Below, one piece after another: positions 1-10,228 of a stretch of DNA of 10,228 bases. The notes below the pieces were generated by a model. The model had not been told where the DNA came from, did no database searches, and saw only the letters and a program-made list of their open reading frames with translations. Positions within the stretch are counted from its first letter, which is position 1. Each line of letters opens with the position of its first letter. Origin of the DNA: a virus (Duplodnaviria > Heunggongvirae > Uroviricota > Caudoviricetes); IMG/VR virus record IMGVR_UViG_2923302340_000004, positions 1 through 10,228 of that record. One strand, given 5' to 3'. The position numbers and the translations under genes are program-made.

Positions 1-1428
1 GTGAAATTATTCAGATTCTCTAAAGTAAAAATTGCAGAACTGCCAACGCCGGAACATGGACAGGTCGAATATGGTGATACGGAGGTTAACGGGCTGCGTG
101 TCCGTGTAGGTTCGTCTGGTGTGAAAAGTTTCTGCATTTCCCGTAAGCGTAACGGAAAATTTATTCGTGCAACGCTGGGGCGTTTTCCTGATCTGAGCGT
201 GGATAATGCCAGGGCTAAAGCTATGGAACTCCTTGGCGAAGTCGCCACAACGGGGATAAATCCGAACATAGCAAAGCGCACTAACAACAAGGCCATGATA
301 ACGCTGAGTGAGGCGATTGACGCCTACGTAAAAAATCGTGGCCACCGCCTGAAACCCGCCACAGAAAAACAGTACCGCAGCATATTACAGAATTATTCCG
401 GTGACTGGATGGCCCATACCCTCGCCAGTATTTCCCGCGAACGGGTGGAACAACGGCATAAGGCCATCACTGATGGGGCTGTATGGTTCGGTGCTGATAA
501 AACCACGTTACGGGCTGGGGTTGGTACAGGAAGCAAGGCACAGGCCGATTTATGGGCGCGTGCGCTACGTGCTGTGTGTCGGTTTGCGCATGATCATTAC
601 CGTGATGATGCGGGTAATACTCTTTTACCGGATCCGCCGACTCTGGTACTGAGCACCAAGCGCCAGTGGCACGGAACGGTAAGAAAAACGGAACGTATCC
701 GCCTGCATGATTTTCCCCGCTGGTTTGCTGCTGTAGCTGCTGTGCGCGACCAGGGCGAACAGGAAAGGGATGATATAGCGGTGACGGTATGCGATGCCGT
801 GGAAATGGCGCTTTTTACCGGACTGAGGAAATCAGAAATTTTTGGCCTTACGTGGGATCGAGTGAATATGGGCGGTCGTTTTTTCTGGATAGACACCACG
901 AAAAACGGGGATCCGCTCGAATTACCGATTACTGATACGTTGCGGGAAATGTTCCACCGCCGACTGAAAATAAAAAACGCTGATGATGTTCTGCTGTTTC
1001 CTGGTGTGAAGGGAGTGATTCAGGAAACACGGCACATCATAGACCGGATAAGCGCGGCTACTGTTCCAGAGTCGAACGATGAAATGCTCTCCCCTGTACC
1101 ATTCAAATGGCACGATGCACGCCGGACGTTCGGAACGGTTGCCGAACTGGTGGGCGTGGGCAATTACATCCTCAAGCGCCTGATGAATCACCGTACTATG
1201 CGAAGTGCTGACGTAACGCAGGGGTATTTACATTTTGGTGCTGATGAACTGCTGGAGCCAGCGTCACGGATAGAACGGGCAATTCTGGAACATGCCGGGC
1301 TGGTGGAGAGTAAAAAATCTATCGATGCGCAATTGCTTTCCGCACTGGAGAGTATGAGTGACAGTGAGAAACGCGCATTACTATTTAGTATCGTTAATTC
1401 AAATGGTGATTTGAATGTCAGAAAATAA
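1..1428 (+). CDS. int: Tyrosine site-specific integrase, P4-type (N-terminal arm-binding domain plus catalytic core)
   Basis: 475-aa ORF. N-terminus (KIAELPTPEHGQVEYGDTEVNGLRVRVGSSGVKSFCISRKRNGKFIRATLG...INP) matches the arm-type DNA-binding domain pattern of P4-family integrases. C-terminal core has the H-x-x-R box (WHDARRTFGT) and a terminal Tyr motif (DVTQGYLHF). Starts with GTG at the window edge, so the true start could be at or just upstream of position 1. Has a ~50-aa C-terminal extension relative to typical members. Confidence 0.9.
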   Translation: MKLFRFSKVKIAELPTPEHGQVEYGDTEVNGLRVRVGSSGVKSFCISRKRNGKFIRATLGRFPDLSVDNARAKAMELLGEVATTGINPNIAKRTNNKAMITLSEAIDAYVKNRGHRLKPATEKQYRSILQNYSGDWMAHTLASISRERVEQRHKAITDGAVWFGADKTTLRAGVGTGSKAQADLWARALRAVCRFAHDHYRDDAGNTLLPDPPTLVLSTKRQWHGTVRKTERIRLHDFPRWFAAVAAVRDQGEQERDDIAVTVCDAVEMALFTGLRKSEIFGLTWDRVNMGGRFFWIDTTKNGDPLELPITDTLREMFHRRLKIKNADDVLLFPGVKGVIQETRHIIDRISAATVPESNDEMLSPVPFKWHDARRTFGTVAELVGVGNYILKRLMNHRTMRSADVTQGYLHFGADELLEPASRIERAILEHAGLVESKKSIDAQLLSALESMSDSEKRALLFSIVNSNGDLNVRK

Positions 1429-2101
1429 AATCATTGCTGCAATAGAATTTGACCATAATGATGCGAAGGATATGAATACTATTGCAGATTATATTAGAGA
1501 TGAACTGGCGTCTTCTTTTGTAAAAAAAACGATATGCGATATGGCAAATATCACACCATCTAAAATGTCTCTGGAGGAGAGATTATCATTATCGTCAGAG
1601 ATAGAAAATAAGGATTTAAAGGTTAATATTTCTGTATGTGCCGGGTATGGAGATGATTTTGATAAAAAATTTAATAGTGCATATTCAGAATTCAATGATA
1701 TTTTGAAAGCTGCCATTATATTTGAAGTTCTTGGTTTCAACAGACTTGCAGATCAGTTACGTGAAAGATATGCGATTTTAGTGTCGGAGAATTTATTAAA
1801 ATCAGTACGTGATATAGCTAATGTAAAGAAAATTATCAGTGAAGACCGTAGTAAAGCAAAGAAAGGAAAAACAAACAGGCATAAATCAACAGCGTTATCT
1901 ATAGCTTGTAACACTTGGAAAAAATACCCTAATGCCAGTTTACCCGGGCTATCCGCAGAGATATACGCGCATTTACGCAATAAATGGAATGATGTCCCTG
2001 TAGTTGGGACTATAGAGAGATGGCTTAAGGAGTCGGGGATGAATCCAAAATCCCCGCAAAAAAACAGGGATTTTAAGTTAGTTATTGGAGACAAAGAATA
2101 A
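1415..2101 (+). CDS. Hypothetical protein, AT-rich accessory (cargo) gene between int and alpA
   Basis: 228-aa ORF. ATG at 1415 is preceded by GGTGA and overlaps the integrase stop by 14 nt. The gene is visibly AT-rich (roughly one-third GC by eye) against ~50% GC flanks. No motif I can confidently assign; C-terminal third is basic (KKGKTNRHK...) and could be nucleic-acid binding. Confidence 0.6.
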   Translation: MSENKIIAAIEFDHNDAKDMNTIADYIRDELASSFVKKTICDMANITPSKMSLEERLSLSSEIENKDLKVNISVCAGYGDDFDKKFNSAYSEFNDILKAAIIFEVLGFNRLADQLRERYAILVSENLLKSVRDIANVKKIISEDRSKAKKGKTNRHKSTALSIACNTWKKYPNASLPGLSAEIYAHLRNKWNDVPVVGTIERWLKESGMNPKSPQKNRDFKLVIGDKE

Positions 2102-2233
2102 ATCCAGTTTTATCCTCTGTAATCCAGATTTCAGTCATGTAAACCAGATATGCGATTTTGTATCTGGTTTTCCTGTCTTCAAGACTTCCCCATCGCTAAA
2201 TAACGTATACCTGTTCTTAATCAGAAGTATACG
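2101..2233 (+). promoter_or_regulatory. Putative alpA promoter/operator region with direct repeats and a perfect 9-bp inverted repeat
   Basis: Direct repeats AATCCAG(A)TTT at 2101-2111 and 2121-2131. Perfect inverted repeat AACCAGATA (2142-2150) - 10 nt - TATCTGGTT (2161-2169), immediately upstream of the alpA start. Confidence 0.35.
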
Positions 2234-2242
2234 GTGATACTC

Positions 2243-2431
2243 ATGCATTTAGAAAAGATGACCCGCAAAGAAGCTGCCGAGCATTTGGGGGTAAGTGTCC
2301 AGACTCTTGCTAACTGGGCGTGTACTGGCAAGGTAAAAATCCCTTTTCATAAGCTGGGGCGCAAAGTGCTGTATATGCGCACTGATCTCGATGCTTATCT
2401 TGCATCCACTCGCAGAACGCAGACGGTGTAA
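2243..2431 (+). CDS. alpA: AlpA-family / excisionase-like helix-turn-helix DNA-binding protein
   Basis: Short protein with the typical HTH signature MTRKEAAEHLGVSVQTLANWACTGKVKIPFHKLGRKVLYMRTDLDAYL (compare AlpA/HTH_17 pattern: hydrophobic-LGVS-x-T-hydrophobic-x-x-W ... G-R-x-hydrophobic-x-hydrophobic-x-x-x-L-x-x-W/Y-L). Located directly after int and a cargo gene, as in CP4-57-type islands. Start ambiguous: GTG 2234, ATG 2243 (GGTGA upstream) or ATG 2258. Confidence 0.8.
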   Translation: MHLEKMTRKEAAEHLGVSVQTLANWACTGKVKIPFHKLGRKVLYMRTDLDAYLASTRRTQTV

Positions 2432-2541
2432 GGGGGAGTGATGGCACATAAAACAAAGGCGACCGCAGAGGGCCGCCAGTGGCATAACACTAAACTTGAG
2501 CATATCCAGAATACCAGGTTGTTGGCTGGTGGGCAATGCAA

Positions 2542-2715
2542 TCAGTCTGGTTCAGTTCGTTGCCATACCTGCAATGGGCGCGTTTCCCTGTACTCTTTAA
2601 GGAATTGCTCAAGGGCAAAAGCACATGGCGCGAATCTTTCTGATTCATGCTCTATCTTTCTGCGCCGTCTTTTCCGTGCCGGTGATAATGTTTTGGTCAA
2701 TTCTTTATCGGTCAT
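2542..2715 (-). CDS. Small basic hypothetical protein (uncertain; may be non-coding)
   Basis: Minus-strand ORF downstream of the RHH gene, reading MTDKELTKTLSPARKRRRRKIEHESERFAPCAFALEQFLKEYRETRPLQVWQRTEPD. AGGA lies 8 nt upstream of the internal ATG; the alternative ATG at 2730 has no SD. Many rare Arg codons (AGA, CGG, AGG). A same-region + strand frame is also open, so the coding strand is not settled. Confidence 0.3.
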   Translation of the reverse strand: MTDKELTKTLSPARKRRRRKIEHESERFAPCAFALEQFLKEYRETRPLQVWQRTEPD

Positions 2716-2772
2716 TGTGTTGTCCTGCATAGCAATGCGCCGTAGTTACTCACACCACGGCGCTGGTGATGG

Positions 2773-2952
2773 TTACTCCTGCTCTTTGGCCTTGCGGCGC
2801 TGGCGGCGTTTGATCTCGCCTTTAACGGCAGTAACTATAAATTGCGCCTTGCTTTCACCTTCATCTAAATTTTTTTCTAAGTCTGCAACAACATCATGCG
2901 GGAATCTGGCATTTAACTGTTGCGACTTATTATTTGTTGAACCTGTTGCCAT
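2773..2952 (-). CDS. Ribbon-helix-helix (Arc/MetJ/CopG-like) small DNA-binding protein, putative transcriptional repressor
   Basis: 59-aa product MATGSTNNKSQQLNARFPHDVVADLEKNLDEGESKAQFIVTAVKGEIKRRQRRKAKEQE. Layout is beta-strand (QQLNARFP), helix A, G-x-S turn (GES), helix B, basic tail, which is the classical RHH pattern. ATG at 2952-2950 is preceded by a strong SD (GAGAGGA) 7 nt upstream. The longer ORF-track version (to 3126) has an implausible N-terminal extension covering the promoter. Confidence 0.6.
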   Translation of the reverse strand: MATGSTNNKSQQLNARFPHDVVADLEKNLDEGESKAQFIVTAVKGEIKRRQRRKAKEQE

Positions 2953-3142
2953 TACTGAATCCTCTCTAAGTTGGTGCGATTCAGTATACACAAAAAAAAT
3001 TTCAGAGAAAGGCTTGAAGTGCGATTCACTTTCTGATAGGTTAAAAACGAATGGTGCGATGCACCAAGCAACAACGCCCCGCAGTGGTGGCACACATGCA
3101 GGGCGTCTAACCACCAACGATAGCAACAGTATCGAGGCAGCT
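2953..3142. promoter_or_regulatory. Divergent control region between the RHH gene (-) and the icd-like gene (+), with repeated GTGCGAT operator-like motifs
   Basis: GGTGCGATTCAG at 2973-2984, AGTGCGATTCAC at 3018-3029, and the palindromic GGTGCGATGCACC at 3053-3065. A -10-like TATACT (minus strand, plus coordinates 2983-2988) overlaps the first repeat, just upstream of the RHH SD. Confidence 0.4.
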
Positions 3143-3346
3143 ATGAGAAATTATACCAGACACCCGCAAGGGCGGGACTCGTACAACCTGAATAAATACA
3201 TCTGGCGTTTTATCGCCCTGAGCACGGCACAACCGCGCGTGATTACCATTGAGGCCACCAGCGAACAGGAAGCGCGTCAGCAATCTCCGGCTGGCTGCGT
3301 GATGGTATTCGCCGCCCGTATTCGTCAGGGGGTGTGCCATGCCTGA
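3143..3346 (+). CDS. Icd-like small protein (host cell division inhibitor Icd-like family), tentative
   Basis: 67-aa product MRNYTRHPQGRDSYNLNKYIWRFIALSTAQPRVITIEATSEQEARQQSPAGCVMVFAARIRQGVCHA. The YIW-F-A ... IEA-SE-EAR ... FAAR pattern resembles the short Icd-like proteins annotated in P4-like elements. GAGG lies 7 nt upstream of ATG 3143. The upstream in-frame extension of the ORF track (from 2438) looks non-coding. Confidence 0.55.
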   Translation: MRNYTRHPQGRDSYNLNKYIWRFIALSTAQPRVITIEATSEQEARQQSPAGCVMVFAARIRQGVCHA

Positions 3347-3659
3347 TATGTCAAATTACCAGTACCTGATTAATCCGCATTTTAACTGTGAGCATGATAT
3401 TGCTAAAAAGGTTTATTCCGCTGCTGATGAGGCTACTGACAATATATCAATGGCTGTTGCGTCAATTGGTAGCCTGATGTGGCATGCGTCAGAAAATGAG
3501 GACTATGACGAAAAGGCCATGCGCATTGATATGGGTAATATCGGTTTGTTACTGGCAATGCTTGGGCGGTTTGATATTTCGTTACGGTGCACCATTGAAA
3601 ATGCCACAGATGCATTAAATGCCATAAAGAAAGCGAATACTGATTCAAATCGGGGATAA
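3339..3659 (+). CDS. Hypothetical protein
   Basis: 106-aa ORF. Its ATG overlaps the icd-like stop (ATGCCTGA), suggesting translational coupling. A G-rich SD-like stretch lies upstream. Acidic protein with no recognisable motif. Confidence 0.55.
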   Translation: MPDMSNYQYLINPHFNCEHDIAKKVYSAADEATDNISMAVASIGSLMWHASENEDYDEKAMRIDMGNIGLLLAMLGRFDISLRCTIENATDALNAIKKANTDSNRG

Positions 3660-3665
3660 ATAATC

Positions 3666-3965
3666 ATGAGAACATATTTATCTGGCTTGACTGCCAGCGG
3701 TTATGCACACCCCAAAATTATCCCCGGCGCTATTTATCTGGATAAGAACGGTAACAGAGTAACGGTAAAAGAACTGATGTTTGACCGTGTGTATTTTATT
3801 CGTGATGGCTATTCATTTCATAGTTCGCTGAACGTGGAGATCTTTATTAGCAGATTCCGGCGGGAAATCCCGACTTCCAGAAATAACCATGTGTCACGTG
3901 TGGATGTGGATAAAAAACTGCAGGAACTGAAAAACATGATTGCCGCGTGGAGAGAGCCGAAATGA
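3666..3965 (+). CDS. Hypothetical protein (small, precedes the primase)
   Basis: 99-aa ORF. GGGGA SD lies 9 nt upstream of ATG 3666. Its stop TGA (3963-3965) overlaps the primase ATG (3962) as ATGA. No motif confidently assigned. Confidence 0.55.
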   Translation: MRTYLSGLTASGYAHPKIIPGAIYLDKNGNRVTVKELMFDRVYFIRDGYSFHSSLNVEIFISRFRREIPTSRNNHVSRVDVDKKLQELKNMIAAWREPK

Positions 3966-6085
3966 AAAAAGCGCCAAATTTAAAACACCAGCCGCGTGAC
4001 AAAATGACGGAAGTCATCATTTTTGCGGGTAGTGATGCGTGGGCACATGCGAAGCAGTGGCAGGAACAGGACGGGCGACTGGCTGGCGATAACGTGCCTC
4101 CTGTCTGGCTTGGAGAGCAACAACTTGCCGAACTGGACAACCTGCAAATCGTACCGGACGGACGCTATCGCGTGCGTCTCTATCAGGCGGGGTTATTGCG
4201 TCCGGGGCTTGTTAATACCATCGGGCAGAAACTGGCAGCGGCAGGTGTCAGGGATGCTGATTATTACCCTGAAGGAATGCACAGCCAGAAACGGGAGAAC
4301 TGGCGCGAATATCTGGAACGTGAACGGGCAGAGCAGGCGGAAAAGAAAAAGGTAGTTGAACTGCCTGTAAAGAAAAAAGAGCCATGCTATCAGGATGATG
4401 AATTAAAGCCCCGCGTTGAAAGTCGCGTCGATGGTGTTTTCTGGGTAACGCCCAAAGTGGATAAGCAGTCAGGCGAAATTATCCGGCCTGAGACGTGGTT
4501 ATGTTCTCCGCTTGAACTACTGGGAACGGGGACGATCGGTAAAGAGCATTACCGCGTGATGCGCTGGAAAAAATTAGCAAACCATGAAGTCATCACAATG
4601 GCGATCCCGTGTGGTGGCATTGGCGACCGTGACGGCTGGCGGTTGCTTAAAGATCACGGGCTGAACGTGACAACAAACGGCAAATACAGGGCTATCCTGG
4701 CTGACTGGATGCAGTTAAGCGGAAGCCATGAGGAATGGCAGCTAAGCACAACAACGGGCTGGCATTTTGGCGCGTATATCATGCCGGACGGCTCAATCAT
4801 TGGTGATTCTGAAAAACCGATCCTGTTTACCGGAAAAAGTGCCGCTGTTAATGGCTATTCGGTTGCGGGTACGGCGGAGGGCTGGCGCGACTGCGTGGCG
4901 CGGCTGGCTGGTGGCAATCCGTCCATGATGCTGGGTGTTGCCACGTCACTGGCAGCACCTTTGATTGGCCTTGTTGGTGCTGACGGCTTCGGGGTACATC
5001 TTTTCGAACAGTCATCGGCAGGGAAAACCACCACGCAGAACATCGCATCCAGTTTATGGGGAGAGCCGGACGCACAACGGCTGACCTGGTACGGCACAGC
5101 GTTAGGTATCGCTAACGAGGCAGAGGCGCACAACGACGGGCTGTTACCCCTGGATGAAATAGGCCAGGCCGGAAACGCGCGGGAGGTGTCCACGTCAGCC
5201 TATACGTTGTTTAACGGTTCCGGGAAATTACAGGGGGCGAAGGACGGCGGCAACCGGGAGATAAAACACTGGCGCACGGTGGCAATCAGCACCGGAGAAA
5301 TGGACGTTGAGACATTCCTCAAAACGGAGGGGATAAAAGTCAAAGCGGGGCAGCTTGTCCGCCTGCTTAACGTTCCGATGGAAAAAGCCACGCACTTTCA
5401 CGAATACAGCACCGGAAAGGCGCACGCAGACGCGTTAAAGGATGCCTGGACAGAAAATCACGGGGCAGCGGGTCGTGAGTGGGTTAAATGGCTGGCAGGC
5501 CACCAGCAGGAGGCAAAGGATACGGTAAGGGAATGCCGCGAACGGTGGCGCAACCTGATACCGGAGAGCTACGGCGAGCAGGTCCACCGCGTGGGTGAGC
5601 GTTTCGCCATACTGGAGGCCGCGCTTGTGCTTTCCGGTCATGTAACTGGCTGGGCCGCGCAGGAATGCCGGGACGCAATACAGCATAACTTTAATGCCTG
5701 GGTGAAGGAGTTCGGCACGGGTAACAGGGAATTTAAACAGATGGTTGAACAGGCTGAGGCGTTTTTGTCGTCGTTCGGGTTCAGTCGATACCTTCCTTAC
5801 CCAAACAGTGATGAACGTGATTTACCGATTAAAGACCTTGCCGGATACAGAAAGGGGAGTATCAGAAATGAAGATGATGAGTTCCGTTTTTACACGTTTC
5901 CTCATGTGTTTGAGGGGGAGATCGCACAGGGATTTAACCCGTCCCACTTTGCCCGCGCGTTGAGTGCTGCCGGAATGCTGGAAGCGGGTAACGATCGCCG
6001 TTACAAGAAAAAGGCTCTCGGCAAAATTGGGGGGAAGCAGCATGTTTTTTACGTGCTGATGTTCCAGCCTGAGGCAGAAGATTAA
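3962..6085 (+). CDS. Replication protein: primase/helicase-like with a central P-loop NTPase domain (PICI Pri-Rep / P4 alpha-like role)
   Basis: ~708-aa ORF. ATG 3962 is preceded by GAGAG and overlaps the upstream stop; the ORF-track start is a GTG at 3947. Walker A-like FEQSSAGKTTTQ and Walker B-like GLLPLDEIGQ lie in the middle of the protein. Its size and position immediately upstream of an iteron array are typical of satellite/plasmid primase-helicases (DUF927-like). The family name is from memory. Confidence 0.8.
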   Translation: MKKAPNLKHQPRDKMTEVIIFAGSDAWAHAKQWQEQDGRLAGDNVPPVWLGEQQLAELDNLQIVPDGRYRVRLYQAGLLRPGLVNTIGQKLAAAGVRDADYYPEGMHSQKRENWREYLERERAEQAEKKKVVELPVKKKEPCYQDDELKPRVESRVDGVFWVTPKVDKQSGEIIRPETWLCSPLELLGTGTIGKEHYRVMRWKKLANHEVITMAIPCGGIGDRDGWRLLKDHGLNVTTNGKYRAILADWMQLSGSHEEWQLSTTTGWHFGAYIMPDGSIIGDSEKPILFTGKSAAVNGYSVAGTAEGWRDCVARLAGGNPSMMLGVATSLAAPLIGLVGADGFGVHLFEQSSAGKTTTQNIASSLWGEPDAQRLTWYGTALGIANEAEAHNDGLLPLDEIGQAGNAREVSTSAYTLFNGSGKLQGAKDGGNREIKHWRTVAISTGEMDVETFLKTEGIKVKAGQLVRLLNVPMEKATHFHEYSTGKAHADALKDAWTENHGAAGREWVKWLAGHQQEAKDTVRECRERWRNLIPESYGEQVHRVGERFAILEAALVLSGHVTGWAAQECRDAIQHNFNAWVKEFGTGNREFKQMVEQAEAFLSSFGFSRYLPYPNSDERDLPIKDLAGYRKGSIRNEDDEFRFYTFPHVFEGEIAQGFNPSHFARALSAAGMLEAGNDRRYKKKALGKIGGKQHVFYVLMFQPEAED

Positions 6086-6116
6086 CCCCCTGTGTGAGGT
6101 GAAAAGTTGCGTGTTA

Positions 6117-6424
6117 TGCGGGTTACTATGTGTATAAGTGCATTAACTGCATGAATAAAAAGGAAATCAATAACCCGCACGTAACCCGCAAAACGGCAGT
6201 TATAACCCGCAAAAGTGCGATTATAACCCGCAGATGAATAACAGGAAGTGACAGCAAACAGCCACGCGTAACCCGCAGAAAAAACCCCGTTTGCGGGTTA
6301 TTTTGAGCATTTTGCGGGTTACGCCACGGCTAAACAGTAAACAGTTAATTTTGTAATGTATTGATATTAAGGAATAAAAAATACTTAGCAAGCGAAGATA
6401 ACCCGCTAACCCGCATAACCCGCA
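6117..6424. repeat. Iteron array, putative origin of replication of the element
   Basis: At least 11 copies of the 9-bp motif TAACCCGCA in both orientations. Forward copies at 6171, 6182, 6203, 6224, 6269, 6407 and 6416, plus variant TAACCCGCT at 6399. Reverse copies TGCGGGTTA at 6117, 6292 and 6313. Several spacings are 11 or 21 bp (helical phasing). An AT-rich stretch (about 6330-6395) and TATATATATA (about 6433-6442) lie within and beside the array. Located directly 3' of the primase gene. Confidence 0.7.
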
Positions 6425-6463
6425 CTGTTTTGTATATATATACGAAAAATTGAGATCTGAACT

Positions 6464-6706
6464 ATGAAGGCAAACCGCAAACAACCACACTACCGCGCTA
6501 TTGACCTTACAGAGCACTGGCTGAGAGTGGCGATAAAAATCATCGACCGAAACACGGGGGAAGGATATGCAAAAGCACATCCCGAACTGATAAGCGCATT
6601 CATGACAACGGCAGCTGCAAACTTTGCCACGTTGACAGAACGGGAGATTGCCGAAGCGGAACAGGTGACAACCATCAACGTTAAAACCGGAGAGCAGATA
6701 GCATGA
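6464..6706 (+). CDS. Hypothetical protein
   Basis: 80-aa ORF immediately after the iteron region. Its stop overlaps the SSB-like start (ATGA). Weak SD; function unknown. Confidence 0.45.
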   Translation: MKANRKQPHYRAIDLTEHWLRVAIKIIDRNTGEGYAKAHPELISAFMTTAAANFATLTEREIAEAEQVTTINVKTGEQIA

Positions 6707-7125
6707 CAGCACAGATAGCGGCTTACGGACGGCTGGTGGCTGACCCGCAGTTAAAGACCACCAGCAAGGGTACACAAATGGCGATGGCTAGTATGGCGGT
6801 CCCCCTTCCGTGCAGCCAGGCAGATGACGGAACGGCGATGATGTGGTTATCCGTCCTGGCGTTTGGCAGACAGGCCGACGCACTGGCAAAACACCACAAA
6901 GGCGAACTGGTGAGCGTGGCGGGTAACATGCAGGTAAGCCAGTGGACAGGCCAGAACGGCGAAACGCGGCAGGGCTGGCAGGTTATCGCAGACAGCGTGA
7001 TCAGTGCGCGAACAGCGCGACCGGGCGGCAAAAAAGGCCAGCAGGGGCAGGCCACTGACGCATTGAACAGGGCAAAACAACAGTCGGGGAATGATGATCC
7101 GTACGGCGATAATATACCGTTTTAA
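6703..7125 (+). CDS. ssb: Single-stranded DNA-binding protein (SSB-like, short form)
   Basis: 140 aa. OB-fold region aligns by eye to E. coli SSB: GRLVADPQLK...MAMASMAV against GNLGQDPEVR...VANITLAT, W..V.AFG..A..LAKHHKGELVSVAGNMQVSQWTGQNGETRQ against [43 protein letters not shown]. Gly/Gln-rich linker and acidic C-terminal tail DDPYGDNIPF (SSB ends in DDDIPF). GGAGAG SD lies 8 nt upstream. Confidence 0.75.
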   Translation: MTAQIAAYGRLVADPQLKTTSKGTQMAMASMAVPLPCSQADDGTAMMWLSVLAFGRQADALAKHHKGELVSVAGNMQVSQWTGQNGETRQGWQVIADSVISARTARPGGKKGQQGQATDALNRAKQQSGNDDPYGDNIPF

Positions 7126-7142
7126 ATTCTGCAAACAAAAAG

Positions 7143-7171
7143 ATGCCGGAAAAAAATAGATTTTCCGGCAT
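7143..7171. terminator. Perfect 11-bp stem-loop (ATGCCGGAAAA / TTTTCCGGCAT, 7-nt loop) after ssb; possible terminator or RNA structure
   Basis: Inverted repeat at 7143-7153 and 7161-7171, 18 nt after the ssb stop. There is no U-tract 3' of the stem on the + strand (the T-run is inside the stem); a T-rich run follows on the - strand. The terminator call is therefore weak. Confidence 0.3.
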
Positions 7172-7336
7172 GCTACATAAATCCCGACCAAAGGAAGTAA
7201 ATACATTAACACGAATTATCAGCACTGAAGTTGTTACGGCATATTTTATACAACATTGCACTTGGTTGCATGTATTTGCATAGCAGACATCGGTAATAGA
7301 ATATATTCACAATTATTTGTAATGAATGTAAAGAGG

Positions 7337-8383
7337 ATGAGTATGGTTGATTTATATTCGCCTACACAGCTTGTGCAGGTGGCTAATGCTGAAGATGTGC
7401 AAAAAAAATTAAATGCGTTGTTTACCAGTTTGTTTTTCACTCGCTCGGTAATGTTTGAATCGAGAGACATTATTCTTGATACGATCGACGATCCAAATAT
7501 CCCGATCGCGGCGTTTTGCTCTCCTATGGTGGGCAGTAAAGTTTCACGAGATGAGGGATACGAATCAAAAACAATTCGTCCAGGTTATATGAAGCCGAAA
7601 AGCAGCATTGATCCAAATAAGTTAGCTGTGCGCCCTGCTGGTGTGTCACCTGAGCAATACAATGCTTTTGGGGCGCGTAATATTAAAGTTAAACAGGCGA
7701 TTGTAAATCAGGCTAAAGCTATTCGTGCACGTATTGAATGGCTTGCTGTTCAGGCAATCACAACGGGGAAAAATATCATTGAGGGCGATGGTATTGAACG
7801 TTATGAGCTGGACTGGAATATAAAACCACAAAATATCATCACTCAGTCTGGCGGTACTGAGTGGTCAGGTAAGGATAAAGAAACTTTTGATCCAAATGAT
7901 GATATTGAGAGCTACGCAGAATTTAGTGAGGGCGTCACTAATATCATCATTATGGGTGGTAATGTATGGAAGAAATACCGTTCATTCAGAGCGATAAAAG
8001 AGGCTTTGGATACCCGTCGTGGCTCTAATTCCGAACTGGAAACGGCCCTTAAAGACCTTGGTGATTCGGTGAGTTTTAAAGGGTATATGGGCGATGTTGC
8101 GATTGTTGTTTACAGCGGGCGTTATACCGACGAGGACGGAACTGAAAAATATTTCCTTGATCCTGATTTGATGGTGCTTGGCAATACGGCTCTTCAGGGG
8201 ATTGTCGCTTATGGCGGTATTCAGGATCCGGAGCTAATCCGGATGGGGCTGACTAAAGCCGAACTTGCACCGAAAAACTATATTGTGCCTGGTGATCCGG
8301 CTATTGAATATGTGCAGACACATTCAGCACCACAGCCAATACCGGCCCGCATCAATCGTTTTGTTACCGTTCGCATTGGCTAA
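7337..8383 (+). CDS. Major capsid protein, lambda gpE family
   Basis: Extensive collinear similarity to lambda gpE as I recall it: MSM start, then NIITQSGGTEWSGKDKETFDPNDDIESYA, LDTRRGSNSELETALKDLG, YMGDVAIVVYSG, MVLGNT, GDPAIEYVQTHSAP against lambda NITQSGGTEWSKRDKSTYDPTDDIEAYA, LDTRRGSNSELETAVKDLG, MYGDVAIVVYSG, MVLGNT, GDPAREFTMIQSAP. SD AAGAGGA lies at 7331-7337; the start is ATG 7337 or, with better spacing, ATG 7343. The ORF-track start at 7256 is an artefactual extension. Confidence 0.9.
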   Translation: MSMVDLYSPTQLVQVANAEDVQKKLNALFTSLFFTRSVMFESRDIILDTIDDPNIPIAAFCSPMVGSKVSRDEGYESKTIRPGYMKPKSSIDPNKLAVRPAGVSPEQYNAFGARNIKVKQAIVNQAKAIRARIEWLAVQAITTGKNIIEGDGIERYELDWNIKPQNIITQSGGTEWSGKDKETFDPNDDIESYAEFSEGVTNIIIMGGNVWKKYRSFRAIKEALDTRRGSNSELETALKDLGDSVSFKGYMGDVAIVVYSGRYTDEDGTEKYFLDPDLMVLGNTALQGIVAYGGIQDPELIRMGLTKAELAPKNYIVPGDPAIEYVQTHSAPQPIPARINRFVTVRIG

Positions 8384-8392
8384 GGGGGAGCA

Positions 8393-8734
8393 ATGGCTAC
8401 TCATTACACTGAACTCATGTCTGGCACTGAAGCACTGGTTACTACGCTGGGGATATTTTCAGCCAATAAAGGGGTAATACCTGCGTTTACGCCACTGATG
8501 CAGGAAGATGCAACTGGTGCGCTAGTGGTATGGGATGGAACGAGCGCAGGCAAAGCGGTTTATGTTTCCGCTGTACAAATCGACACAGCGAAAAAAACAC
8601 AGGCACAGGTTTATAAGACAGGTGTTTTAAATGTTGATGCTCTGAACTGGCCTGAGTCTGTAAAAGAACTGTCGGCAAAGGTTGCCGCGTTTGTTGGCTC
8701 AGGTATTTCTGTTCAGCCGCTGGCTCGTGTGTAA
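8393..8734 (+). CDS. Head decoration protein, lambda gpD family
   Basis: 113 aa. PAFTPLMQEDATGALVVWDGTSAGKAVYVSAVQ...YKTGVLNVDALNWPE...AAFVGSGISVQ aligns by eye with lambda gpD [32 protein letters not shown]...YKSGTFRYEDVLWPE...TAFAGTAISIV. Strong SD TAAGGGGGAG is coupled to the capsid gene stop. Confidence 0.8.
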   Translation: MATHYTELMSGTEALVTTLGIFSANKGVIPAFTPLMQEDATGALVVWDGTSAGKAVYVSAVQIDTAKKTQAQVYKTGVLNVDALNWPESVKELSAKVAAFVGSGISVQPLARV

Positions 8735-8745
8735 AGGGGGATACA

Positions 8746-9129
8746 ATGCAGAATCATTACAATGACCTTAAGCCAATTGCCGAAATGATGTATCCGGATC
8801 CAGCAGTAGAGGAATTAAAGGCTATTGCTGACAAAATGCGTTTAAGTGAACGCCTTGTTGATATGAATCAGGTGATGGAACTTACTACCCTTAGCCGTCG
8901 CACATTGCTAAACCTTGAGGCTCGCGGAGAGTTCCCCGAACGCGTACAGGTTACGGAAGGGCGTAAGGCCTGGTATTTAAGTGAAGTGATCGACTGGATA
9001 AACAATATTCCTCGAGCTTCTGAATATTGCCGCGTACCTGTCCCAAAAAAGCCAGATGCGGCGCTATGCCTCAAGATTGAGCGTGTACGCCGCAATGCAT
9101 GGGATGGTCGCTATAAGCTGATTGGTTGA
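8746..9129 (+). CDS. Second AlpA-like / excisionase-type HTH protein with N- and C-terminal extensions
   Basis: 127 aa. Central segment VDMNQVMELTTLSRRTLLNLEARGEFPERVQVTEGRKAWYLSEVIDWINN matches the AlpA/HTH_17 signature (TGLSRSTIYRL...G.FP.P...G.R...W...E...W). SD TAAAGGGGGA is coupled to the gpD-like stop. Lies immediately upstream of the cos site. Confidence 0.65.
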   Translation: MQNHYNDLKPIAEMMYPDPAVEELKAIADKMRLSERLVDMNQVMELTTLSRRTLLNLEARGEFPERVQVTEGRKAWYLSEVIDWINNIPRASEYCRVPVPKKPDAALCLKIERVRRNAWDGRYKLIG

Positions 9130-9182
9130 TGAAATTAGGGCCCGTTCTGGCTGGCGGGTCCTTTCCGGCGATCCGGTAGGCT

Positions 9183-9230
9183 ACGGGGCGGCGACCTTGC
9201 GGATTTTCGCTATTTATGAGCCTTTTCGGG
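9183..9230. other. cos site: lambda-type cosN (12-nt cohesive-end sequence GGGCGGCGACCT at 9186-9197) with flanking sequence, followed by a divergent cosB-like region
   Basis: ACGGGGCGGCGACCTTGCGGATTTTCGCTATTTATGAGCCTTTTCGGG is near-identical over ~35 nt to the lambda left end GGGCGGCGACCTCGCGGGTTTTCGCTATTTATGAAAATTTTCCGG (from memory). It sits ~135-150 nt upstream of the Nu1-like gene, as in lambda. Sequence beyond ~9220 diverges from lambda cosB. Confidence 0.75.
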
Positions 9231-9330
9231 TTGGTGGTGGTGGTTTTGTTTTTCGCTCTATCTCTATGAATAAAAAGGGAAAGATAACACCAACACACCA
9301 ACCTGAAACCTTAACTAAGTGGGGATATTG

Positions 9331-9873
9331 ATGAAATCGCACCTGATGAACAAAAAAACTATGGCGCAAAGCTGCCGCGTAAGTGCGACAGCGTTCGACA
9401 AGTGGGGAGTAACTCCCGTTGAGCGTAAAGGCCGTGAGGCGTTTTATGATGTTGCTAGCGTGATAGACAATAGGGTTAACAATGCAATTAACCAGCTTAC
9501 AAACGACAAAGGCGAGATTGATGATGATGAACTTTTACGCGTAAGAATCAGATTAATGACGGCCCAGGCGGAAGCGCAGGAACTTAAAAACGAGCGCGAA
9601 CGCGGCGAGGTGATTGATACAAAGTTTTGCATCTACGCGATTTCAAAACTAGCGAGTCAGATTTCATCAATCATGGACAGCCTCCCGCTCACAATGCAAA
9701 GGCGCTTTCCCGATATAAAGCCGTATATGCTGGATGAACTAAAAAGGGAAATAGCCAAAGCATGTAACGCATGTGCAAGACTTGACGAAAACCTGCCACA
9801 GATACTGGCTGATTACCTGATGGAAACTACCGGAAACGCGCCTGAGAAGTTGCTAGAGAACAAAGGCGAGTAA
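9331..9873 (+). CDS. Terminase small subunit, lambda Nu1 family (satellite TerS / packaging-redirection candidate)
   Basis: RLMTAQAEAQELKNERERGEVIDTKFCIYAISKLASQISSIMDSLPLTMQRRFPDI matches lambda Nu1 RLTRAQADAQELKNARDSAEVVETAFCTFVLSRIAGEIASILDGLPLSVQRRFPEL. The N-terminus MNKKTMAQ... corresponds to the Nu1 wHTH start MEVNKKQLAD. GGGGA SD precedes ATG 9331; alternative ATG at 9346; the ORF-track start is GTG 9319. Confidence 0.85.
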   Translation: MKSHLMNKKTMAQSCRVSATAFDKWGVTPVERKGREAFYDVASVIDNRVNNAINQLTNDKGEIDDDELLRVRIRLMTAQAEAQELKNERERGEVIDTKFCIYAISKLASQISSIMDSLPLTMQRRFPDIKPYMLDELKREIAKACNACARLDENLPQILADYLMETTGNAPEKLLENKGE

Positions 9874-9946
9874 CCGCCGCCCCGTAACGGGCCATAATTC
9901 CAGGAAGGACCCGACGACACCAGGCTATCAGAACGATGAGGGCACA

Positions 9947-10228
9947 ATGACTGAAGCCGAACTACTGGGATTAATCCGCCGCGTCGTCGGAATCAGCCAG
10001 CAGCATGACGAACAGGCCACACAGCCGGACAGCGTGACCGCTGAAAATTATGTGCGTGTTGTTGCTGAGGTGATGCGCCGTGATGGTATTGAGCTTAACG
10101 GCGTGGATATGCGCAACATACGAACAAGAGTCCTTGAGTTGCTGGCATACCGTCGCCGTTCTCAACAACGGAGGGAGAGCGCGAAAAATACTTACCAGTG
10201 GAAGAAGCCGGAACGGTTGCGGCGGTAG
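9947..10228 (+). CDS. Hypothetical small basic protein downstream of TerS
   Basis: 93-aa ORF with GAGGG SD 6 nt upstream of ATG 9947; stop TAG at 10226-10228 is the last codon of the window. Arg-rich C-terminus. No similarity I can recognise to the lambda gpA N-terminus. Confidence 0.45.
   Translation: MTEAELLGLIRRVVGISQQHDEQATQPDSVTAENYVRVVAEVMRRDGIELNGVDMRNIRTRVLELLAYRRRSQQRRESAKNTYQWKKPERLRR

Follow-up and report, generated by a model that had tools for sequence, protein, structure and literature searches.

Capsid genes in described phage-inducible chromosomal islands

Among Gram-negative phage-inducible chromosomal islands (PICIs), EcCICFT073 carries two genes, c1499 and c1500, whose products have been described as a putative capsid and a head decoration protein, respectively (Fillol-Salom et al. 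2018, PMC6092414), and the present analysis concerns a homologous pair, related to genes E and D of lambda, in a 10,228-nucleotide stretch of Caudoviricetes DNA (IMG/VR record IMGVR_UViG_2923302340_000004, positions 1 to 10,228; the window) that makes up nearly all of another such island. An E-D pair without portal or scaffold genes in a PICI has therefore been known since 2018, from EcCICFT073. Deletion of c1499 or of c1500 left both lambda interference and transfer by the resident prophages of CFT073 unchanged, the EcCICFT073 DNA packaged with lambda as helper was all phage-sized, and helper-driven induction with high-frequency transfer has been demonstrated for EcCICFT073 only (PMC6092414). 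When the genes beyond the EcCICFT073 origin were expressed singly from pBAD18, lambda was blocked by c1503 (rppA) only (Fillol-Salom et al. 2019, PMC6739421), and deletion of rppA from the island fully restored lambda plaques (PMC6739421). The review by Dokland describes EcCICFT073 as having a capsid homologue, yet normal-size heads with lambda (PMC6893505). In a set of 29 reference Gram-negative PICIs, 21 possess a gene for a major capsid protein, and transfer does not depend on it (PMC10111431). The crystal structure of c1499 (PDB 3BQW) was released in 2008. In the literature searched, no later functional study of the E-D pair of a PICI was found, and the Tai and synthetic-PICI papers are silent on these genes.

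Two structural genes under strong purifying selection are thus kept in approximately 7% of complete Escherichia coli genomes and in several enterobacterial genera, yet deletion of their homologues has no phenotype. Our comparative results (a separate satellite clade, a co-diverged D, relatives embedded in prophages, a relative with the order E-D-C, a conserved repeat upstream of E, and a tyrosine where lambda has Trp308) leave a real structural role as the plausible one. The observations that go beyond what was published are the separate clades of E and D, the E-D order in 11 loci, the selection on both genes, the embedded and E-D-C relatives, and the context of cosN and a Nu1-type gene. An earlier note, made from the letters of the window, had taken the pair to suggest a capsid-redirection mechanism of a new kind; this novelty did not hold, as the same pair was already present in EcCICFT073 (PMC6092414) and redirection by a capsid homologue is known from Ccm of SaPIbov5 (PMC8569155).

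The island of the window resembles EcCICFT073 in its succession of integrase, alpA, primase, capsid, decoration, regulator-sized, packaging-specificity and 93-amino-acid last genes (the last being 78% identical between the two islands), in its E-D order without portal or scaffold, and in cos-type packaging by lambda-type helpers. It differs in its packaging gene, which is a Nu1-type small terminase (TerS) rather than the 144-amino-acid RppA; in the gene after D, an AlpA-like helix-turn-helix (HTH) regulator not similar to c1501; in the DNA upstream of E, which consists of ssb and a 217-nt promoter region where EcCICFT073 has an overlapping 68-amino-acid open reading frame (ORF); and in its site, tRNA-Ile(CAU) beside mug, the right end of EcCICFT073 being beside phoQ. 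The experiments on EcCICFT073 concern a homologue that is 56% identical to the E-like protein of the window, not the island of the window itself.

A lambda-type capsid and decoration gene pair

The pair and the packaging genes that follow it occupy the last third of the window:

7343-8383, + strand: major capsid protein of the lambda gpE type, 346 amino acids
8393-8734, + strand: head decoration protein of the lambda gpD type, 113 amino acids
8746-9129, + strand: second AlpA-like HTH regulator, 127 amino acids, in the interval between D and cos (PF05930, 1.4e-8; PHROG 2790, 1.8e-48)
9186-9219, + strand: cos site, exact lambda cosN followed by 22 nt with 2 differences
9331-9873, + strand: small terminase of the lambda Nu1 type, 180 amino acids, full length (PF07471, 7e-24; PHROG 57, 1e-53)
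9947-10228, + strand: conserved 93-amino-acid protein, the final gene of the island (PHROG 1561, 1e-56)

The E-like ORF matches Pfam family PF03864 (Phage_cap_E, 2e-41) over positions 4-327 of the 329 in the profile, and PHROG 29 ('major head protein', 1e-89). Its start had been placed at 7337 in the earlier note; 7343 is better, being the start given by RefSeq and being preceded by a Shine-Dalgarno sequence (AAGAGG) that is kept together with this ATG in seven related loci. The ATG at 7337 is not conserved in those loci, and there is a further alternative ATG at 7322. The protein is 56% identical to c1499 and 42-43% identical to gpE of the lambda type, and its best match among 50,697 phage records is lambda gpE itself (42%). 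In a phmmer search of the PDB, the best match was c1499 (3BQW, 2e-122), and lambda gpE (7VI9) matched at 2e-77. An AlphaFold2 (AF2) model (pLDDT 79, pTM 0.80) has the full HK97 fold, with N-arm helices, E-loop, long spine helix (residues 108-141) and A-domain, and superposes with template modelling (TM) scores of 0.91 on 3BQW and 0.85-0.89 on lambda gpE (7SJ5, 7VI9). The E-like protein is a complete member of the lambda gpE family (PF03864) with the HK97 fold.

The E-loop and N-arm, where the earlier note had suggested looking for alterations that would change the triangulation number (T), show no gross change; the alignment with lambda E contains insertions and deletions of 1-4 residues only. 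Divergence from lambda is heaviest in the N-terminal half (18-34% identity per 30-column window), and identity is 57-80% in alignment columns 180-270. Fifteen positions of E tell the satellite clade from the phage clade, and they concentrate along the spine helix and within the C-terminal motif EYVQTHSAPQP. Where lambda has Trp308, tryptophan is found in 63 of 63 phage-type E proteins and tyrosine in all 11 proteins of the window type, as well as in 10 of 34 other satellite E proteins; in the window the residue is Y313 (codon at approximately 8279-8281). Substitution of alanine for this tryptophan in lambda gpE is described, in the title of PDB entry 7SJ5 and in PMC11674207, as giving a soluble, assembly-deficient protein.

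The D-like ORF matches PF02924 (HDPD, 2e-15), PHROG 49 ('head decoration', 1e-26) and the solved gpD/SHP structures 1TD0 and 1C5E. By these matches it is assigned to the lambda gpD family (PF02924), in which the protein acts as a trimer at threefold sites of the expanded shell. It is 54% identical to c1500 and 47% identical to gpD of a CFT073 prophage, and its best match among the same 50,697 phage records is 42% identical. The N-terminus of satellite D is 4-7 residues shorter than that of phage gpD, and its C-terminus bears an extension (SVQPLAR) that is shared within the clade and missing from phage gpD. Satellite D has thus co-diverged with satellite E.

The window is 100% identical to a stretch of the genome of E. 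coli CFSAN018748 (NZ_CP028192.1), where it forms nearly the entire 11.3-kb island, from int to tRNA-Ile. Downstream of the window there is only approximately 0.9 kb of non-coding DNA before tRNA-Ile, the island end. A search downstream for portal and protease genes had been called for by the earlier note, which took the element for a satellite without portal or scaffold; on both points it was right. The island ends without further genes, and no portal, protease, scaffold, large terminase (TerL), tail or lysis gene was found in the whole 11.3 kb by RefSeq annotation, the ORF list or Pfam and PHROG searches with the larger ORFs. A complete head module downstream, as in capsid-forming PICIs (cf-PICIs), is ruled out by the position of tRNA-Ile approximately 0.9 kb past the window.

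Gene order, divergence and selection

On the + strand, E comes first and D begins after a gap of 9 nt. The lambda order is Nu1-A-W-B-C/Nu3-D-E-FI, and C-D-E was found in every lambda-type prophage locus examined, whereas the order is E-D in 11 of 11 satellite loci examined, from nine genera: Serratia (L003, L004), Edwardsiella (L005), Lelliottia (L007), E. coli (L002, L015, L016), Kluyvera (L017), Superficieibacter (L018), Cedecea (L019) and Kosakonia (L020). The reversal of order relative to lambda, which the earlier note had pointed out, is therefore real. A scan of genome contigs yielded mostly phage-type E and assemblies contaminated with lambda, and only four further satellite loci.

Homologues of E fall into two groups, one with at least 51% identity (364-769 bits) to the protein of the window and the other with at most 44% (at most 290 bits). 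Each context checked in the first group was a PICI, and each in the second was a prophage with the C-D-E order. Identity to lambda E is 40-47% for satellite E and 47-100% for the sampled phage proteins, nearly all of which have at least 55%. Satellite E and satellite D thus each constitute a clade apart from the phage proteins. Recent capture from a sequenced phage was considered and is ruled out, no phage record exceeding 42% identity for E or D.

The ratio of nonsynonymous to synonymous substitution rates (dN/dS) for unsaturated pairs is 0.065 for E (dS 0.135) and 0.06-0.09 for D, and for more diverged pairs of E (dS 1.25-1.47) it is 0.074-0.085. These values are no higher than those for ssb, terS and the 93-amino-acid ORF in the same island, and they indicate that E and D are both under strong purifying selection. 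The E-D variant of the window is present in 395 of 5426 complete E. coli genomes (approximately 7%, at a coverage of at least 80%). Clusters of full-length E homologues have hundreds to thousands of members, and truncated variants are few (P0013, P0037, P0052).

Relatives of the E-D module

Several relatives of the module lie within prophages. In E. coli SCU-101 (L016, 2174-13932), an E-D-HTH-TerS module with 96% nucleotide identity to that of the window belongs to a satellite that is integrated into E of a lambda-type prophage; satellites with the E-D module likewise interrupt E of lambda-type prophages in Cedecea (L019) and Kosakonia (L020), and in Edwardsiella (L005, 765-12681) such a satellite is inserted in the helper portal gene. 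The satellite of SCU-101 also has two genes annotated as abortive-infection genes. In Lelliottia sp. SL45 (L007, 10001-13337), E and D are followed by a full-length homologue of gpC/Nu3 (50-57% identical to phage C) and then by an Rpp-like gene; this PICI also has a gene of the Phage_HCP family after alpA. An AlpA-like HTH gene directly after D, as in the window, is found also in L003, L016 and L017-L020.

PICIs of the c1499 type have a conserved ORF of 68-75 amino acids whose stop codon overlaps the start of the capsid gene (L002, 463-669; L005, 9789-10001; L007, 9774-10001). Islands of the window type lack this ORF; ssb and a promoter-like gap take its place.

Apparent E-D fusions in the list of homologues (P0005, P0079, P0084) proved uninformative; P0079 reads through from D into E and P0084 from E into FI, each within an ordinary prophage context. 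On a metagenome scaffold (L014, ERZ28600228, 2801-4180), one protein (P0045) consists of approximately 240 residues of lambda E followed by approximately 100 residues of satellite E of the window type, and the next gene encodes D of the satellite type. The junction (at approximately 8007 of the window) lies in a 28-nt stretch that is identical between lambda E and satellite E, and the chimera is either a natural helper-satellite recombinant or a misassembly.

The region upstream of the capsid gene

Two features were noted between ssb and E:

7143-7171: GC-rich hairpin between ssb and the promoter region of E, scoring as a terminator on the - strand only
7256-7302, + strand: candidate regulated promoter of the E-D unit, with three TTGCAY repeats, a -35-like and a -10-like sequence

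Three direct repeats of TTGCAY with a 10-bp period occupy positions 7256-7281, which are 62-87 nt upstream of E, and in a promoter scan the third of them overlapped a -35-like sequence (TTTGCA, 7275-7280) that is accompanied by a -10-like sequence (TAGAAT, 7297-7302). The triple repeat occurs once in the window, a count that was reached in 2 of 200 shuffles, and the island has no other copy of it. It is kept upstream of E in six loci from several genera (L015, 8778-8793; L016, 8914-8929; L017-L020, approximately 9900-9941) despite diverging flanks. The E-D unit is probably transcribed from its own regulated promoter, and the repeats are possibly the activator-binding site of a separate late promoter. 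The hairpin at 7143-7171 is present also in L016, and other hairpins take its place in other relatives.

The cos site and small terminase

Downstream of the second AlpA-like gene and ahead of terS, the exact lambda cosN (GGGCGGCGACCT) is present at 9186-9197. Of the 22 nt that follow, all but two match lambda; beyond them, where cosB is found in lambda, the two sequences diverge. The island TerS is 37% identical to lambda Nu1 over 178 amino acids, including the C-terminal half, which in lambda Nu1 binds gpA; comparison of TerS with RppA found no similarity. Thus, with cosN and a full-length Nu1 homologue, the island itself provides for recognition of its cos, and must borrow TerL, portal, protease/scaffold, connectors and tail. 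The E-D pair, being located just upstream of the exact lambda cosN and the Nu1-type gene, belongs to this packaging module. Four copies of the island (4 x 11.29 kb = 45.2 kb, or 93% of the lambda genome) fit a head of lambda size, which is consistent with the phage-sized packaged DNA of EcCICFT073. The terS genes of lambda-type prophages in five loci (L022, L027, L047, L057, L060) encode proteins 46-51% identical to satellite TerS, compared with 35-45% to lambda Nu1, and prophages of this kind may represent the natural helper type.

Possible roles of the capsid and decoration proteins

Of the readings considered, the one that accounts best for the evidence, although we hold it tentatively, is that E and D are working shell and cement proteins that act on the portal and scaffold of the helper and are redundant with helper E and D in the laboratory. 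A lambda-type helper would induce the island, and the E-like and D-like genes would be transcribed, probably from their own regulated promoter. The E-like protein would assemble on the helper portal and protease/scaffold (equivalents of gpB and gpC/Nu3) into lambda-type heads or patches of them, the Nu1-type TerS of the island with the large terminase of the helper would fill these heads from the island cos, and after expansion of the shell the cognate D-like trimer would cement it. The gpD of lambda binds to the E lattice only after expansion and is needed for the stability of nearly full heads. Because gpD binds only the expanded shell and the co-diverged D is under strong constraint, we infer that satellite E reaches expanded, DNA-filled heads; and because the island has neither gene, the helper would have to supply portal and scaffold. 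A benefit would be expected when the supply of shell protein from the helper is short, late or cut off, for example by a satellite inside the helper E gene, and would consist either of an extra or earlier supply of shell protein or of independence from a helper E gene interrupted by an embedded satellite. The lack of phenotype upon deletion of the homologues would be due to the redundancy of the module with helper E and D in the laboratory. Speaking for this reading are the completeness and full HK97 fold of E, the low dN/dS of both genes, the constant E-D order in 11 satellite loci, the clades apart from phage proteins, the satellites embedded in helper E or portal genes, the position beside cosN and the Nu1-type gene, and the fit of four island copies to a full-size head. 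The gpC-type gene of the Lelliottia relative fits a role in assembly and suggests that the module is able to grow towards autonomy. If E and D do enter particles, this family would be a bridge between satellites that take over entire heads and satellites that make heads themselves, and would be relevant also to engineered PICI-based delivery particles.

Three points weigh against a working shell and cement. Deletion of c1499 or c1500 left transfer undiminished (PMC6092414), so that any contribution is dispensable with that helper; compatibility of satellite E with helper scaffold and portal cannot be assumed, given the divergence of its N-terminal half and the replacement of Trp308 by tyrosine; and the argument from backup fits E better than D, because helper D is intact where satellites are embedded.

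Other explanations differ in what satellite E would do to the shell. With its natural helper, satellite E (with D) might force the formation of small heads for one or two 11.3-kb genomes and so exclude the helper genome, as Ccm of SaPIbov5, a capsid homologue, redirects head shape (PMC8569155); PmCI172, a PICI of Pasteurella, likewise combines a capsid homologue with small heads (PMC6092414, PMC6893505), the clade-specific changes in E include the tyrosine at lambda position 308 and the conserved C-terminal motif, and the island of the window differs from EcCICFT073 (56% identity in E, its own TerS rather than Rpp, Tyr at 308). We nevertheless consider such size redirection unlikely, as neither the N-arm nor the E-loop has a large insertion or deletion, the island has no scaffold-like size determinant, a lambda head accommodates four island copies, and the smaller satellite capsids that the earlier note had envisaged are not what was seen with the 56%-identical homologue, all EcCICFT073 DNA packaged with lambda being phage-sized and deletion of c1499 or c1500 having no effect. 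A related proposal, in our judgement also improbable, is that with natural lambda-type helpers satellite E and its cognate D build shells of their own on a stolen portal and scaffold, unmixed with helper E and possibly of a smaller T that suits one or two genomes of 11.3 kb; the change of Trp308 to tyrosine and the clade-specific C-terminal motif would then alter the self-association of capsomers, and such shells, if real, would represent a lambda-type, two-gene intermediate between classical and capsid-forming PICIs. Poisoning of helper capsids, the other mechanism put forward in the earlier note, would have satellite E, D or both combine with helper E into defective shells and lower the helper yield, for which the shared fold at 42% identity and the replacement of an assembly-critical tryptophan might be suited. 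It is very unlikely, given that rppA alone among the singly expressed genes of EcCICFT073 blocked lambda and its deletion restored plaques (PMC6739421), that interference was not relieved by deletion of c1499 or c1500 (again the 56%-identical homologue in the case of E), and that poisoning offers no reason for a decoration protein to co-evolve under strong purifying selection.

A role outside particles, such as exclusion of unrelated incoming lambdoid phages, service as a decoy or trigger for capsid-sensing immunity, or regulation, would agree with the richness of PICIs in defence genes (PMC11364771), with the lack of phenotype of the homologues in transfer and interference assays, and with what seems to be a conserved promoter region belonging to E-D itself. 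A PADLOC scan of E, D, the 228-amino-acid ORF near int and other small ORFs yielded no meaningful match, however, the pair is located in a packaging module beside cos and terS, and a gpC protease/scaffold gene has been added in a relative, so that we give such a role a low probability. That the pair is left over from late genes that were captured from a helper and have lost their function would account for the EcCICFT073 deletions without phenotype and for the few truncated variants, but is scarcely credible: the selection data (dN/dS 0.06-0.09) exclude it, and full-length ORFs in the same order persist across nine genera with synonymous divergence up to saturation, in clusters of hundreds to thousands of full-length members.

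Comparison with other satellites and with lambda

Among helper-embedded PICIs (HE-PICIs), L016, L019 and L020 share E-D-HTH with the island of the window, and their E proteins are 79-98% identical to its own. The window differs from them in being at a chromosomal tRNA site rather than in a helper and in having a different integrase, and it encodes TerS, whereas the published HE-PICI 11capE is described as lacking terS (PMC10111431).

Ccm of SaPIbov5 is, like E of the window, a satellite homologue of an HK97-fold helper capsid protein that is encoded without a portal or scaffold gene. Ccm changes the shape and size of the head and interferes with the helper (PMC8569155), whereas corresponding tests of the EcCICFT073 homologue of E showed no such effects, and Ccm has no partner decoration protein. 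Ccm was absent from the results of all sequence searches performed here and is not a close sequence relative of E of the window.

The cf-PICI EcCIEDL933 has the same type of int-alpA-rep backbone and a capsid protein of its own, but cf-PICIs possess a complete set of capsid, protease, portal, connector, HNH, TerS and TerL genes, of which the island of the window has only the capsid and TerS genes, together with D. P4-like satellites are marked by the external scaffold Sid, the decoration protein Psu and the activator Delta, and Pfam and PHROG scans of the window detected no match to the Sid or Psu families; the ORFs of the late zone encode capsid E, HDPD, AlpA and Nu1. The island of the window is thus neither a cf-PICI nor a P4-like satellite nor an HE-PICI.

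Lambda itself has in common with the island the Pfam families and folds of E and D, the exact cosN and a Nu1-type TerS. It differs in sequence (42% identity), in its D-E order and in having B, C, Nu3, W, FI and FII; Trp308 of lambda is replaced by tyrosine in E of the window, and D of the window departs from lambda gpD at its N-terminus and is extended at its C-terminus.

Other features of the island

The remainder of the window, upstream of the region between ssb and E, contains the following:

1-1428, + strand: tyrosine integrase (PF00589, PF13356)
1415-2101: 228-amino-acid ORF between int and alpA, of low GC
2234-2431, + strand: AlpA (PHROG 66, 'excisionase and transcriptional regulator', 2e-10; HTH protein in RefSeq)
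after alpA: small ORFs, including Icd-like and DUF4222 proteins
3947-6085, + strand: DUF927 primase-helicase (DUF927, 2e-47; PHROG 1139, 1e-180)
6182-6223: tandem 21-nt iterons resembling an origin (predicted origin), downstream of the primase gene
between the iterons and ssb: 80-amino-acid ORF
6703-7125: SSB gene

In CFSAN018748, the island is located between nfeF and a tRNA-Ile(CAU) that adjoins mug; ARAGORN called this tRNA at the island end, with its CAT anticodon, as Met. Repeats of 65 nt from the tRNA 3' end lie on both sides of the island as attachment (att) sequences, with 11,289 bp between the copies. The major genes are all on the + strand, co-oriented with the terminal integrase gene. 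An integrase at one end, AlpA, a primase with a predicted origin, and a size of approximately 11 kb bounded by att repeats are all features of Gram-negative PICIs, as are the lack of lysis, tail, portal and large terminase genes and, for packaging, the possession of its own TerS (a redirection device) and its own cos. Every feature of such islands that sequence can reveal is present, which places the island among the Gram-negative PICIs, in the family of EcCICFT073.

The 228-amino-acid ORF at 1415-2101 has a GC fraction of 0.34-0.37, far below that of the rest of the island, and had no Pfam or PADLOC match; it is probably an accessory gene, possibly for defence. A 42-nt imperfect repeat with CGGTATCCTATAGGTATCCT is found near both island ends within the att regions (5907-5948 and 16976-17017 of locus L001), and its copies are possibly arm sites of the integrase.

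Contigs identical to lambda were encountered in assemblies of unrelated organisms (Neobacillus, Kitasatospora, Bradyrhizobium, Akkermansia and others; L029-L044, L063, L066, L068, L070, L079, L080, L089, L095). These contigs are mostly small and of low coverage, and look like lambda DNA contamination of public assemblies.

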